From NCBI GenBank assembly GCA_016198585.1, contig JACQII010000016.1, forward strand, positions 21,078 to 85,077: a stretch of DNA of 64,000 nt, read 5' to 3'. Shown piece after piece: positions 46,603-63,200 of this stretch. The DNA is from Candidatus Aenigmatarchaeota archaeon. GTDB lineage: Archaea > Aenigmatarchaeota > Aenigmatarchaeia > QMZP01. The first letter of the stretch is position 1; each line of letters begins with the position of its first letter. Below the pieces are notes generated by a model, which worked only from the letters and a program-made list of their open reading frames with translations, made no database searches and was not told the origin of the DNA. The translations under genes and the position numbers were made by a program.

Positions 46603-46789
46603 GATGTCTCCATGTGCGGGTTCTTGATGATGTACAGAGAGAAAGCACTCCCGCACGTCTTTTATTTTCTCCTGTCTTGAGCGGATATAGGGGGTTTGGG
46701 TATTTAAAGGTTGCTGTCCCCCGGACGCCGGCGCGCCGGCCGGGAGGTCCGGTCCGACAACGTCAGGTTCATGACGCCGACCGCAAGCG

Positions 46790-46801
46790 TATATAAAGTT
46801 T
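46790..46801 (+). promoter_or_regulatory. Archaeal TATA box facing into the island
   Basis: TATATAAAG with purine-containing upstream flank (CGCAAG); ~200 nt before the first island ORF. Confidence 0.55.
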
Positions 46802-46999
46802 CATGGGTAACAGAAATATCCACTCGGGGATAGTGAAACCGATGTGCATCGCTCATGTTCCCACACCATTCACGTCGCGCTGAGCATCCGCTGAGCGTTC
46901 CCGCACGGGCACAGGTCCTGCGCAGTTGAACTGCTCCCCACCTGGACCGCCGAGAAGACTCCCGCGCGACAGGTCCCTGTCTTTCGTGAGCACCATACC

Positions 47000-47152
47000 A
47001 TGAGTCCGCGTTCCCGGCTCGTGTGCTGGATCCTCTTCTGCCTGTTCTGCTTCGGGTTCCACTGGTGGGCAGTCGTCTACGGCTGGCTCATCCACACGGC
47101 GACCGTCGACCTGGACGCCGACCAGGAACCTCCTCCCCCGTCCACCGAGTGA
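47000..47152 (+). CDS. Small membrane protein (50 aa)
   Basis: Below the ORF-track cutoff. MSPRSRLVCWILFCLFCFGFHWWAVVYGWLIHTATVDLDADQEPPPPSTE; its stop abuts the SD of the next gene. Confidence 0.5.
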   Translation: MSPRSRLVCWILFCLFCFGFHWWAVVYGWLIHTATVDLDADQEPPPPSTE

Positions 47153-47164
47153 AAGGAGTTGCCC

Positions 47165-47401
47165 ATGCATCGCCTTCGCGTGTTTCTCTCCTCCCTTCGT
47201 GCGTTCTTCTCCCGTGCCCACCGGGGCTTCCGCCTCGCCATCTGCACGTCCATGGGCGCGCTGATCCTCACCTGGGCGTGGCTGTTTGACGTCGTCGCCC
47301 GCGAGGACCTGCTCGACTTCGTCCTCGGGCTCGCGTTCTTCCTGACCGTGTCATACATTGCCACGAGCCCGGCCGTCATGCGGCGGACGGGAGGAGAATG
47401 A
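47165..47401 (+). CDS. Small membrane protein
   Basis: AAGGAG SD; two hydrophobic segments. Confidence 0.5.
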   Translation: MHRLRVFLSSLRAFFSRAHRGFRLAICTSMGALILTWAWLFDVVAREDLLDFVLGLAFFLTVSYIATSPAVMRRTGGE

Positions 47402-47402
47402 G

Positions 47403-47720
47403 ATGAACCAGACGCATCTGCTCGAGCTGCTCACGACGGCCGCTGCGTCCGGCTCCGACGCGGAACTTGGGAGCATCCACGCCACGCTCCGGAGCGCGTG
47501 TGGCCACCAGCATCCCGTCGTCGGGAACTTCATGAGCCGCCTTTTCGACAGCGCCACCAAGCACCGGCCGGACCTGCTCCCGACCCTGTTCCCGGCCTTC
47601 GCCCTCCTCTGCGGCGACCGGGACCCCGCGTTCGATTTCGCCGACATCGACTGGACACTCATGCCGCCGGCCTCCGAGAAGCCGCACAAGCCGAGGAGGA
47701 AGGCGAGGAAGGACACGTGA
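47403..47720 (+). CDS. Hypothetical protein
   Basis: GGAGGAG SD; strong GC3 bias; packed operon spacing. Confidence 0.55.
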   Translation: MNQTHLLELLTTAAASGSDAELGSIHATLRSACGHQHPVVGNFMSRLFDSATKHRPDLLPTLFPAFALLCGDRDPAFDFADIDWTLMPPASEKPHKPRRKARKDT

Positions 47721-60288: not shown

Positions 60289-60299
60289 CAGATAAGGAG

Positions 60300-60605
60300 A
60301 TGTCCATGAAGATCATCAAGAAGCGGCAGCAGCATCCTACCCTGGCAGCGCTGCGGCGGTTGGCTGGCTGCCAGCCCCGCCGGCGGATCAAGGTGGGAAC
60401 CATCGGCGACCCCGCCAAAGCGACGCTGTGGCTTACCGCGCGCGGCTTGCTTGAGGAGTACCATGTCTATGCCGCAGGAGCGTTCTTTCTCGGAGGGGGG
60501 TACACGCCGCCGTCCCTCTGGCTGGTCCGCCGCTACGGTCTCACCACCTCGGCCTTGAGAGCGCTCCGTTCCCGCGTGGCGGGACAGCGAAGGAGAGCGT
60601 CATGA
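60300..60605 (+). CDS. Small basic hypothetical protein
   Basis: AAGGAG SD; stop overlaps the nadE start. Confidence 0.5.
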   Translation: MSMKIIKKRQQHPTLAALRRLAGCQPRRRIKVGTIGDPAKATLWLTARGLLEEYHVYAAGAFFLGGGYTPPSLWLVRRYGLTTSALRALRSRVAGQRRRAS

Positions 60606-62596
60606 ACTTCCTCGACGCCCGCGGCCACGGCTTCGTGCGGGTTGCCGTGGCAGTTCCGCCGGTGGCACTTGCGAGCCCGCTGGCCAACGCCCAGGCGCAC
60701 GCCCAGCTCCTGGAGGAGGCCTCCCGCAACGGCGCGATGTACGCCGTCTGCCCGGAACTGGGGCTGACGGGCTACAGCTGCGGCGACCTGTTCCACTCCG
60801 CCGCCCTGCTCGACGAGACGGTCGAGGCGCTGTCGCGGCTGGCCGAGCGGACCGGGCGCATGGAGATGGCGTTCACGGTGGGGATGCCGCTCGTGGTCGA
60901 GGGCAGCGTCTTCAACGCCGCCGTCACCCTGTGCCGGGGCGAGGTGATCGCGGTCGCTCCCAAGACCTACCCTCCCGAGTACCGGGAGTTCTACGAGCTG
61001 CGCCACTTCGCCCGCGCCACCGAGGCGCGGCGTCGCTTGGTCACGCTCCTGGGGAAGGAAGTCCCCTTCGGGAACGACATCCTCGTGCGGTTCGCCGGCG
61101 TGCCGGGATTCGTCCTGCATACTGACGTCTGCGAGGACATCTGGGTCCCGATCCCGCCAGGCACGAAGGCCGCGCTGGCGGGGGCGACCGTCCTGGCGAA
61201 CCTCTCCGCGTCCAACATCACCGTCGGCAAGGCTGCGTACCGCGAGCAGCTCGTGCTCGGGTCGTCGGGCAGGAACATCGCTGTCCAGCTCTACAGCGCC
61301 GCCGGCCAGGGCGAGTCCACCACCGACCTGGCCTGGGACGGGGATGGCTACATCGCCGAACGGGGGATGCTGCTCGCGCGGACCGTCCGGTTCCGGCAAA
61401 GCGTGCTGGAAGGGGAGGTCATCCTGGCCGATGCCGACCTCGGCTCGCTGCTGCAGGACCGGATGCGGCAGGGGTCGTTCCGCCAGAACGCCGCCGACAA
61501 TCAGGCGACGTTCCGGGAGGTCATGGTGCAGGGAGCGCTCGGAAAGGAGGCGTCTCCTGCCCTCCTCTCCTTCCAGCGCTTCATCGAGCCCCACCCGTTC
61601 GTGCCGGCGGACCAGGCAGACCGGGACGATCGCTGCTGGGAGGTCTTCCTGATCCAGGCCACCAGCCTGCGGCGCCGCCTGGAGCACGCGGGCGCGAAGC
61701 GCGTGGTGATCGGAGTTTCAGGAGGCCAGGACTCGACACTCGCCCTCCTGGTGGCGGCCCACGCGGTGGACCTGATGAAGCTCCCGCGGTCTACCATCAT
61801 CGGGATCACCATGCCCGGCTTCGGGACGACAGGCCGGACCAAGGACAACGCCCGGAACCTCGTGGAGGCCCTGGGCGCGACGTTCAAGGAGGTGCCCATC
61901 ACGGGCATCGCCCAGTCCGTGTTCACCGCCGTCGGCCACGATCCGGCGGTCGAGGACCTGGCCTTCCAGAACGTGCAAGCCGTGACGCGCAAGCTGGTCG
62001 AGCTCGCCACCTGCTGGGAGACCGGCGGGTTGGACCTCGGAACCAGCGACCTGTCCGAGTTGCTGCTCGGCTGGACGACCATGTTCGGCGACCACGCCAG
62101 CCACTACGGCGTCAATGCCGGGGTGCCCAAGACCCTGGTCACGTCCCTGATCCGGTGGTCGTGCGAACACGTGTTCAGCAAGGAGCCGCCGGTCCAGGCC
62201 GTCCTGGACGACATCCTCAAGACCCCGGTGTCCCCGGAGCTCACCCGTCCGGGCGCGCAGGGCGAGATCCTGCAGCGGACCGAAGACCTGGTCGGGCCGT
62301 ACGAGCTGCACGATTTCTTCGGGTACTGGTTCGTGCGGTTCGGCTATCCGCCGTCGAAGATCGCGCGGATGGCCCTGGCGGCCTTCGGCGGGAGGTACGA
62401 CATCGCCACGATCAAGAAGTGGCTGCGCGTCTTCCTGGTCCGGTTCTTCGCCAACCAGTACAAGCGGTCGTGCCTGCCCGACGGCCCGAAGGTCGGCCTC
62501 ACGTGCGTTTCGCCCCGCGGCGACTGGCGCATGCCGTCGGATGCCACGCCGGAGGCGTGGCTCGCGGACCTCGATCGCGTGCCCGACGCGGTCTAG
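60602..62596 (+). CDS. nadE: Glutamine-dependent NAD+ synthetase (nitrilase + synthetase domains)
   Basis: PELGLTGYSCGDLF, PKTYPPEYREFYE, DVCED, GVSGGQDST, ELGPYELHDFF-like GPYELHDFF, QYKR. Confidence 0.95.
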   Translation: MNFLDARGHGFVRVAVAVPPVALASPLANAQAHAQLLEEASRNGAMYAVCPELGLTGYSCGDLFHSAALLDETVEALSRLAERTGRMEMAFTVGMPLVVEGSVFNAAVTLCRGEVIAVAPKTYPPEYREFYELRHFARATEARRRLVTLLGKEVPFGNDILVRFAGVPGFVLHTDVCEDIWVPIPPGTKAALAGATVLANLSASNITVGKAAYREQLVLGSSGRNIAVQLYSAAGQGESTTDLAWDGDGYIAERGMLLARTVRFRQSVLEGEVILADADLGSLLQDRMRQGSFRQNAADNQATFREVMVQGALGKEASPALLSFQRFIEPHPFVPADQADRDDRCWEVFLIQATSLRRRLEHAGAKRVVIGVSGGQDSTLALLVAAHAVDLMKLPRSTIIGITMPGFGTTGRTKDNARNLVEALGATFKEVPITGIAQSVFTAVGHDPAVEDLAFQNVQAVTRKLVELATCWETGGLDLGTSDLSELLLGWTTMFGDHASHYGVNAGVPKTLVTSLIRWSCEHVFSKEPPVQAVLDDILKTPVSPELTRPGAQGEILQRTEDLVGPYELHDFFGYWFVRFGYPPSKIARMALAAFGGRYDIATIKKWLRVFLVRFFANQYKRSCLPDGPKVGLTCVSPRGDWRMPSDATPEAWLADLDRVPDAV

Positions 62597-62600
62597 TCCC

Positions 62601-62639
62601 CAGGAAGGTGCGGTGGTCTCTCCCCACCCCGCCTTCCTG
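62601..62639 (+). terminator. Hairpin after nadE (putative terminator, right edge of island)
   Basis: CAGGAAGG...CCTTCCTG inverted repeat with additional inner pairing; only a weak U-tail. Confidence 0.45.
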
Positions 62640-62720
62640 CGTTGATGTCATCTTAGAGGGATATCCAATCCCGGCGCTTTCCGGAAAACCTTTTAATCCT
62701 TCCCTAGCCAACAAAATTAC

Positions 62721-63200
62721 ATGCCCCACCCCGTTCCCCTGCAAATCTACCGCGACATCCTGGAGTTCGCGCCCAACGCCTGCGTAGACGTAGTGATCAT
62801 GCACCAGGACCGCGTCCTCATGGTGTACCGCGAGCGCGAGCCTGCGAAGCACCAGTGGTGGTTCCCCGGCGGCCGGATCTACAAGAACGAGCTCCTCGAA
62901 GACGCGATCATCCGCAAGGCCCGTGAGGAGGTTGGCCTCGATGTTCGCGTGGTCCGCAAGGTCGGCGTCTATGAAACCCTCTTCCCCCAGGCTGCCCTGC
63001 CTGAGGTCAAATCAGGGGCGCACACCATCAATATCGCCTTCCTCGCCGCCCCACTCACGAGGCAGCCCGAGGTCGTGCTCGACCAGGACCATTCATCGTT
63101 TGTCTGGTGCGCCAGCCCGGCAAAGGATTGGAACCCGTACCTGAAGCAGGTGCTGAAAGATCTGGGCTGGCCGCCCACGAAAGCGGGAAAGAAGCGCTAG
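62721..63200 (+). CDS. Nudix hydrolase (GDP-mannose hydrolase-like)
   Basis: ACVDVVI, EPAKHQWWFPGGRIYKNE...RKAREEVG; TTTTAA element upstream. Confidence 0.82.
   Translation: MPHPVPLQIYRDILEFAPNACVDVVIMHQDRVLMVYREREPAKHQWWFPGGRIYKNELLEDAIIRKAREEVGLDVRVVRKVGVYETLFPQAALPEVKSGAHTINIAFLAAPLTRQPEVVLDQDHSSFVWCASPAKDWNPYLKQVLKDLGWPPTKAGKKR

Follow-up and report, generated by a model that had tools for sequence, protein, structure and literature searches.

The archaeal exosome superoperon is an array for which Koonin, Wolf and Aravind reportedly described, in 2001, the gene order psmA-sdo1-rrp4-rrp41-rrp42-rpl37ae-rpoP-pfdB, while bacteria have defence or variable-region hotspots between conserved core genes. 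The TerY-P triad, which consists of a vWA protein, a PP2C phosphatase and a Ser/Thr kinase, is said to have been defined by Anantharaman, Iyer and Aravind in 2012 and tested as a defence system by Gao et al. in 2020, and inter-domain transfer in DPANN archaea was reportedly treated by Dombrowski et al. in 2020. Intact sigma-70 factors without anti-sigma partners, together with other bacterial genes, have been found in DPANN chromosomes, with arguments given that they do not stem from mis-binning (Castelle et al., 2021, PMC8204110). Herein we analyze a 64,000-nucleotide stretch of the DPANN archaeon Candidatus Aenigmatarchaeota (the window; positions 21,078-85,077 of the 182,967-bp contig JACQII010000016.1), in which a block of about 15.9 kb with bacterial-type genes lies inside the exosome superoperon, between sdo1 and rrp4. 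We propose that this block is very likely foreign bacterial-type DNA that entered by horizontal transfer on the line leading to this single archaeal genome. The metagenome-assembled genome (MAG) that carries the window (G000) is 0.94 Mb in 16 contigs, 76% complete and has a GC content of 0.63, and the genomes of its relatives are approximately 1 Mb in size.

The superoperon genes on the two sides of the block are readily recognized. They comprise sdo1 (63197-63892; Pfam SBDS_N, domain II and C domains), rrp4 (45898-46656; RRP4_S1 and KH domains), rrp41 (45221-45901) and rrp42 (44448-45233), the latter two both with the RNase_PH and RNase_PH_C domains of Pfam, as well as rpl37ae (44234-44446) and an RpoP-like Zn-ribbon gene (44082-44237), which were judged by eye from the translations of their open reading frames (ORFs) with no family model applied. 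A prefoldin beta gene (43691-44014; PF01920, E = 6.7e-18) is at the far end of the superoperon, and psmA is directly upstream of sdo1 in locus L022, at a position just past the end of the window. All of these genes within the window are on the minus strand, in agreement with a first-pass annotation of this DNA, which had placed sdo1 on one side and rrp4-rrp41-rrp42-rpl37ae on the other side of a bacterial-type island. Both the order psmA-sdo1-rrp4-rrp41-rrp42-rpl37ae and the single strand are therefore preserved, and contiguity is broken only between sdo1 and rrp4, which are 16.5 kb apart. The products of rrp42, rrp41 and rrp4 have 50-73% identity to those of the relatives, in which the gene order is identical, and sdo1 is located 15-360 bp from rrp4 in all 17 of the same-family genomes that have enough flanking sequence.

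The foreign block extends from approximately 46,779 to 62,650 and contains 20 genes, all of them on the plus strand, and indeed every gene from 47,000 to 63,200 is on the strand opposite to that of the flanking exosome genes. The GC content increases from 0.62-0.64 in the flanks to 0.68-0.70 in the block, which places it among the highest 2-3% of 4-kb windows in the MAG, and the increase is seen at all three codon positions (GC1/GC2/GC3 of 0.68/0.49/0.89 for the block genes versus 0.64/0.44/0.85 for the rest; p = 0.011, 0.0002, and 0.006, respectively). The proteins of the block are also poorer in Lys, Ile, Glu and Tyr than are the rest. In nearly every gene of the block a GGAGG-like Shine-Dalgarno (SD) motif is present 5-10 nt before the ATG, and the genes are separated by 1-20 nt or are joined by ATGA overlaps. 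In a crude scan the frequency of SD motifs was 73% in the block versus 36% in the rest, and there are only two AT-rich 8-mers in the 15.9 kb of the block, both of them at its left edge, compared with 33 in 16.6 kb of native flank. The bacterial gene content and SD usage that had been read from this region at first sight are thus borne out both by domain content and by gene layout. All of the block genes are full length relative to their families, which suggests that the block is either recent or maintained.

The two junctions can be placed by comparison with two related genomes, one of the same genus (G001) and one that has the closest Rrp4 in the family (G004). On the left, positions 46,637-46,778 can be aligned over their whole length with the reconstructed G004 spacer between rrp4 and Nudix, as far as the ATG of the G004 Nudix gene (score 51, z 7.0, 0/300 shuffles). 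This segment is a relic of the ancestral divergent spacer between rrp4 and Nudix, and its collinearity puts the left breakpoint near 46,779. On the rrp4 side of the spacer there is a TATA-like GTATTTAAAG at 46700-46709 on the minus strand, which agrees with the proposal that rrp4 has a TATA box of its own. The foreign block then opens with a leader, or left-edge segment, at 46779-46999 (plus strand), which contains a second TATA-like sequence, TATATAAA, at 46791-46798. This one is directed into the block and is the sole AT-rich, TATA-like element in all of it. A scan of both block edges for sigma-70 promoters and terminators gave no signal above chance.

On the right, a strong GC hairpin without a U tract directly follows the nadE stop codon (62601-62640, plus strand; -30.9 kcal/mol, z -3.9, 0/200 shuffles), and it is the probable right end of the block. 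The 124-nt leader of the adjacent Nudix gene (62,597-62,720) does not match the G004 spacer (z -0.1) and has no clear match to the G001 spacer (z 2.0), which leaves the right breakpoint somewhere in 62,641-62,720. The Nudix hydrolase itself (62721-63200, plus strand; PF00293) is convergent with sdo1, such that their stop codons overlap by 4 nt, and it was considered as an island gene and rejected. Its GC1/2/3 of 0.67/0.38/0.83 is host-like, it lacks an SD motif and has instead a TATA-like CTTTTAATCC about 25 nt upstream, and orthologues with 53% identity are convergent to sdo1 in both G001 and G004. As the Nudix gene is native in all three genomes, the superoperon was no longer contiguous between sdo1 and rrp4 by the time the block came in. 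The first-pass annotation had drawn the island as 46680-63200, with a nested GC palindrome near its left edge. That a foreign block separates sdo1 from rrp4 is upheld, but the Nudix gene is not part of it and the block is limited to 46,779-62,650. Likewise, the palindrome (46721-46752) is present but it is inside the ancestral spacer instead of at the junction, and both this native position and a fold no better than that of shuffled sequence (z -0.7 and -1.7) rule it out as a special structure.

A GC step at both ends of a block in a MAG of limited completeness is also what would be expected if a bacterial fragment had been joined twice into an archaeal contig during assembly. We regard such an artefact as very unlikely, as it requires two chimeric joins in one spacer of about 130 bp within a 183-kb contig, and a second assembler, working on one run only, recovered both joins (Logan contigs, SRR12113384). 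The Logan contig that covers the left junction, from rrp42 to ParB, is 99.98% identical to the window, and that covering the right junction, from the end of nadE through Nudix and sdo1 to psmA, is 100% identical, and an exact-protein look-up of rrp4, sdo1 and Nudix in Logan found no contig with an empty site. In addition, the block genes are single-copy in the MAG, with no paralogue or second copy elsewhere in it, and interruptions of this spacer are seen in two further genomes from other assemblies. Together with the adjacency of sdo1 and rrp4 in the 17 relatives, the absence of key genes across the phylum and the bacterial gene trees described below, the reassembled junctions argue for a real inter-domain insertion rather than a simple chimeric join, as had originally been suggested.

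The Nudix-rrp4 spacer is a recurrent insertion site, with three different inserts in three genomes. In G001 the Nudix gene is followed by GC-rich non-coding DNA, repeats of a motif of about 13 nt, a low-GC gene for the specificity (S) subunit of a type I restriction-modification (R-M) system, and then the end of the contig. The motif resembles TTCTGTCCGAAAAG and is present in four to five copies between the Nudix and S-subunit genes (G001:C9, locus L111, 10300-10600), in an arrangement that is iteron- or arm-site-like. In G004 two contigs (C110, locus L124, and C3, locus L125) both end inside the spacer, and a 47-bp direct repeat (two mismatches) is found within the first 100 nt of both, flanking an unassembled element. 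At least eight other contigs end in the same outermost 53-55 nt, which shows that this element is multi-copy.

The phylogenetic evidence points to bacteria, and to Patescibacteria in particular. In a tree built from three concatenated proteins of the kinase cassette described below (1238 columns), the window is sister to locus L024 (Shimodaira-Hasegawa-like approximate likelihood ratio test, SH-aLRT, 94) and is nested within a nine-row clade dominated by Patescibacteria (SH-aLRT 94), which is itself within a 22-row clade (99). The best identities are 60% for the cassette and 43% for the sigma factor. An older origin, in which the block was inherited from an archaeal ancestor and was lost in all of the sampled relatives, is strongly disfavoured and in our estimation extremely unlikely. 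Sigma-70 genes are indeed widespread in the phylum, with Sigma70_r2 in 41 of 301 genomes, and a MAG labelled Woesearchaeota has the cassette, but the sigma genes of the phylum have only 25-37% identity to that of the block, and the kinase of the cassette was found in none of the 300 other genomes, including those of the same genus. The nesting of the window inside bacteria in the trees, and the foreign composition and gene layout of the block, are likewise contrary to such inheritance.

Several observations weigh against horizontal acquisition from bacteria and need to be set beside this evidence. The block is known from one genome only. In a tree of the kinase alone, the window pairs with the Woesearchaeota-labelled MAG (SH-aLRT 94), so that a DPANN-to-DPANN step is possible, and the closest known loci have a GC content of 50-59%, so that a donor with at least 69% GC would have to be unsampled. 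The tetranucleotide profile of the block correlates with that of the genome (r 0.93-0.97) to a degree similar to that of native windows, and the block is thus only moderately atypical, its tetranucleotide distance being at the 85th-95th percentile of the MAG. No integrase or transposase domain was detected in the block by Pfam, PHROG and other profile scans, and there is no att site, flanking direct repeat or target duplication around it in G000. These absences, and that of a tRNA target (Rfam, ARAGORN), had been remarked on at the outset and our searches gave the same result. Finally, the Logan contigs were possibly built from the same reads as the MAG. The Woesearchaeota-labelled MAG was evaluated as a sister group and was set aside, as its pairing with the window is lost in the three-gene tree, and we do not claim a DPANN-to-DPANN transfer.

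The right two thirds of the block is a gene set typical of Patescibacteria, which are bacteria of the candidate phyla radiation (CPR). It begins with a mobile four-gene cassette, all on the plus strand, encoding a PP2C phosphatase (51297-52040; PP2C_2, 6e-16), a 618-residue kinase with a Zn ribbon and a beta-propeller (52078-53934), a long nicotinamidase-like protein of the isochorismatase family with 363 residues (54029-55120) and a 276-residue vWA/MIDAS protein (55131-55961). The AlphaFold model of the 618-residue protein (predicted local distance difference test, pLDDT, 80.8) has a protein-kinase fold, a CxxC...CxxC ribbon and a beta-propeller, and the top match in Foldseek is the kinase-WD40 half of LRRK2, with other propellers and kinases also matched. 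In the 276-residue protein, which has the MIDAS motif DDSGS, the model (pLDDT 88) is that of a vWA fold and the top Foldseek matches are all vWA domains, while a sequence search of the PDB returned no useful match for either the kinase or the vWA protein. Profile matches of the 363-residue protein are weak (Pfam Isochorismatase, 24 bits against a cut-off of 27; profile against the PncA structure 3pl1, E 0.015), and the invariant residues D56, D104/H106 and C284 are at the Asp, Asp/His and Cys positions of nicotinamidases.

The order of PP2C, kinase, a protein of about 350 residues and one of about 265 residues is constant in nearly all of some 80 loci. The kinase-like family has more than 2000 matches at 53-60% identity and is found in 393 species, almost all of them bacteria, including Patescibacteria, cyanobacteria, gammaproteobacterial MAGs, Planctomycetota, Myxococcota and others, in addition to the one Woesearchaeota-labelled MAG. 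In CPR loci the cassette is joined to genes such as those for NrtR, NADAR, NAD kinase, PncB and NadE. We propose that the nicotinamidase-like enzyme is probably under the control of the kinase, PP2C and vWA proteins. The cassette does not match any PADLOC defence system (best E 1e-4 to 4e-3 for PP2C and the kinase, none for vWA), and no description of it was found in the literature searched. The cassette is more novel than the transfer, although it also occurs beyond this locus. In the Woesearchaeota-labelled MAG the cassette is carried on two near-identical contigs of about 107 kb (L077 and L078), which also encode a sigma-70 factor (regions 1.2, 2 and 4), a kinase-phosphatase-ligase RNA-repair protein, a PARP with a WGR domain and a DHH protein, and these contigs may represent either an extrachromosomal element or two strains.

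Downstream of the cassette, and also on the plus strand, are two tandem stand-alone SLOG (LSDAT_prok) proteins (55980-57629; PF18171, 1.8e-8 and 2e-6) followed by nicotinate phosphoribosyltransferase, PncB (57775-59019, with the true start near 57775; NF003704, 442 bits against a cut-off of 379). The same SLOG pair precedes pncB in the Patescibacteria locus L032. A radical-SAM enzyme (59030-59959; PF04055, with a weak match to pVip at 5e-6) forms a run with two small ORFs (59956-60288 and 60300-60605) that is coupled by ATGA overlaps, and the 110-residue ORF after the radical-SAM gene matches phrog_30542 (2.6e-14). The block ends with glutamine-dependent NAD synthetase, NadE (60602-62596; CN_hydrolase and NAD_synthase in Pfam), which is 59% identical to the NadE of L024, and the order pncB, radical-SAM, nadE is also seen in the Uhrbacteria (Patescibacteria) locus L036.

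This gene set suggests a metabolic reason for its retention. A nicotinate phosphoribosyltransferase was found in none of 30 relatives, making the PncB of the block the sole one among 31 related genomes. Some relatives, including G001, have a short NadE, and only the long type encoded by the block was found in G000. There is no nicotinate mononucleotide (NaMN) adenylyltransferase in the block, but a gene of the nucleotidyltransferase family (CTP_transf_like) is present in nearly all relatives and at C3:336-668 in G000, and the host gene is possibly an adenylyltransferase for NaMN or nicotinamide mononucleotide. The PncA-like protein, PncB and NadE, together with this host gene, could then make up a complete Preiss-Handler route that has no counterpart in the relatives, and the nicotinamide-to-NAD salvage that this would bring to a cell of low biosynthetic capacity may plausibly explain why the block has been kept.

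The left third of the block is a rarer module, which is likewise bacterial. Its genes are again on the plus strand and begin with four small ORFs of 50, 78, 105, and 83 residues (47000-47974), which are led by SD motifs, are called identically in Logan and have no match in Pfam or PHROG, and of which the first two are hydrophobic. A PPK2-family polyphosphate kinase (47992-48783; PF03976, 5e-65; TIGR03709, 325 bits against a cut-off of 247) and an 87-residue ORF (48794-49057; called in Logan, no family match) are followed by a sigma-70 factor of the FliA/WhiG family (49104-49877), in which regions 2, 3, and 4 are all present in Pfam and which narrowly passes the cut-off of TIGR02479 (191.5 versus 189.6 bits). 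The ATGA at the sigma stop overlaps the start of an orphan ParB-like protein (49874-50776; ParB_N and HTH by Pfam and NCBIfam), and a 122-residue ORF with an N-terminus that by eye is lipoprotein-like (50838-51206; no family match) completes the module.

An intact sigma factor in a DPANN genome is already known (PMC8204110). The best database matches of the present one are just 43% identical and are from Planctomycetota and other bacteria. There are no flagellar genes in the block, unlike the usual context of FliA/WhiG, and the host is an archaeon. Similarly, the block lacks ParA and hence the pairing that characterizes ParABS, and the relatives of the ParB protein number only about seven, at 35-42% identity, one of which is in the early region of a Mu-like prophage. 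Neither protein identifies a donor, as the top sigma matches are ordinary flagellar FliA genes in flhA-flhF-flhG-fliA contexts without ParB, and ParB has only distant matches to plasmids and phages. The same adjacent sigma-ParB pair was found on a bacterial contig (L145; 41% GC, with TrmD, YceG, L10 and ClpB nearby). There the pair and a neighbouring ORF (6343-8852) have a GC3 of 0.53-0.54 compared with about 0.3 in their surroundings, with the look of a small foreign islet, and from its recurrence with raised GC3 the pair resembles a small mobile module. A second Sigma70_r2 gene is present in the MAG, in a 169-residue frame (C15:13093-13275).

Features of both parts of the block raise the question of its vehicle. 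A mobile element common to CPR bacteria and DPANN archaea (a huge phage, plasmid or integrative element, for example) could have brought it in, as opposed to naked DNA from a bacterial chromosome, and it would now be a remnant of decayed cargo from which the integration genes were lost. Only the vehicle would differ from what we propose. The kinase cassette is present on 12 IMG/VR contigs of 41-545 kb, although large contigs in IMG/VR are frequently host DNA, and the closest loci appear chromosomal, with aminoacyl-tRNA synthetases and RecJ around L025. The prophage relative of ParB, the matches of the 110-residue ORF to two phage families, the many small orphan ORFs, the two near-identical contigs of the Woesearchaeota-labelled MAG with their sigma-70, PARP and RNA-repair enzyme, a further high-GC patch with a tyrosine integrase in the present MAG, and the other mobile DNA in the same spacer of G001 and G004 are all consistent with such a vehicle. 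Nevertheless, profile scans of the block revealed no capsid, terminase, replication or integration gene, and it has no terminal repeats, and we consider delivery by a mobile element to be quite unlikely.

Returning to the acquisition of foreign bacterial-type DNA as the preferred reading, the following history can be envisaged. To judge from the relatives, a Nudix gene would already have stood between sdo1 and rrp4 in the common ancestor of this genus and the sister genus closest to it, facing sdo1 in convergent and rrp4 in divergent orientation. The short spacer between the two divergent promoters of Nudix and rrp4 would tolerate insertions and has taken up different DNA in each of three genomes, and in the lineage of G000 it would have received a 20-gene, one-directional array led by SD motifs. 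If expressed, the array would be transcribed as a single long message from the TATA-like box at the left edge to the hairpin after nadE. As internal AT-rich promoter-like elements are absent, transcription would most likely start at the left-edge box, and the SD motifs could allow translation by the archaeal ribosome. We can go further and envisage the spacer as a hotspot of a DPANN clade akin to bacterial defence islands, and the block as a working NAD-conflict and NAD-salvage island from CPR bacteria or a shared phage, in which an archaeal promoter at the edge transcribes a bacterial-style polycistron and the sigma factor and ParB have been kept for a new DNA-binding role without bacterial RNA polymerase, but this extended proposal is tentative and, as a whole, unlikely.

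Other features of the window and of the MAG are of note. Just beyond the superoperon in the window are genes for a termination factor of the FttA/aCPSF1 type (41024-42901; KH_TffA, beta-CASP) and for SepF (42975-43373, minus strand). Two Rfam tRNAs of 111 and 116 nt (8431-8541 and 33660-33775) were missed by ARAGORN and probably contain introns. Outside the window, the second high-GC patch of the MAG (C6:33000-43000; 0.71-0.73) encodes a tyrosine integrase (PF00589, 1.5e-24), a P-loop ATPase and an Hsp70-like protein and is probably an integrated element, and the highest GC content of the MAG (0.72-0.745) is at a contig end (C15:1-6000), where one ORF is P-loop ATPase-like and another is acidic and of low complexity.

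The block provides a well-bounded measure of the amount of bacterial DNA that can enter a reduced DPANN archaeon in a single step, namely 20 genes with their bacterial operon grammar intact, and it is located within one of the most conserved of archaeal gene arrays. Insertion into so conserved an array would have been possible only because a native gene had already opened it. The source pool would be CPR bacteria, or elements moving among them, which fits with the habitats that CPR bacteria and DPANN archaea share, and with the block the kinase, PP2C, nicotinamidase and vWA cassette crosses the boundary between domains. This raises the questions of whether a bacterial polycistron can be transcribed by archaeal RNA polymerase from one promoter at its edge, and what role a sigma factor might have without bacterial RNA polymerase.

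How, then, does this locus compare with the systems that it most resembles? The archaeal exosome superoperon has all of its members here, with the canonical gene order retained on a single strand, but the array is broken between sdo1 and rrp4, first by Nudix, a native gene both in this genus and in the sister genus closest to it, and then by the 15.9-kb block. Its absence from relatives, its foreign composition and its bacterial trees identify the block as a horizontally acquired genomic island, while it does not have the hallmarks of an integrase-mediated integrative element. As in the defence and variable-region hotspots of bacteria, one conserved spacer has different cargo in each genome (an R-M gene, a multi-copy repeat and the block), although here only three genomes are involved and the defensive role of the cargo is putative. 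With Preiss-Handler salvage (PncA, PncB, NadD and NadE) the block shares a clear PncB and a clear glutamine-type NadE, and its 363-residue protein retains the nicotinamidase residues, but this putative nicotinamidase is twice the usual length and the NaMN adenylyltransferase step is left to a host gene. Like the TerY-P triad, the cassette combines PP2C, a protein of the protein-kinase fold and a vWA/MIDAS protein in one operon. It differs in the long nicotinamidase-like gene that is invariably found within it, in the Zn ribbon and beta-propeller of the kinase, in the lack of a significant PADLOC match, and in its ties to NAD salvage genes in CPR bacteria. The event itself is a well-resolved case of a known process, the cross-domain transfer from a bacterium to a DPANN archaeon. 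As in the DPANN chromosomes described previously (PMC8204110), bacterial-type genes that include a sigma factor are found between archaeal flanks, but in the present case they can be followed as a single block of 20 genes, for which the two junctions, the mapped insertion site and a gene tree of CPR type are all available, and the sigma factor is of the FliA/WhiG type and is coupled to an orphan ParB.

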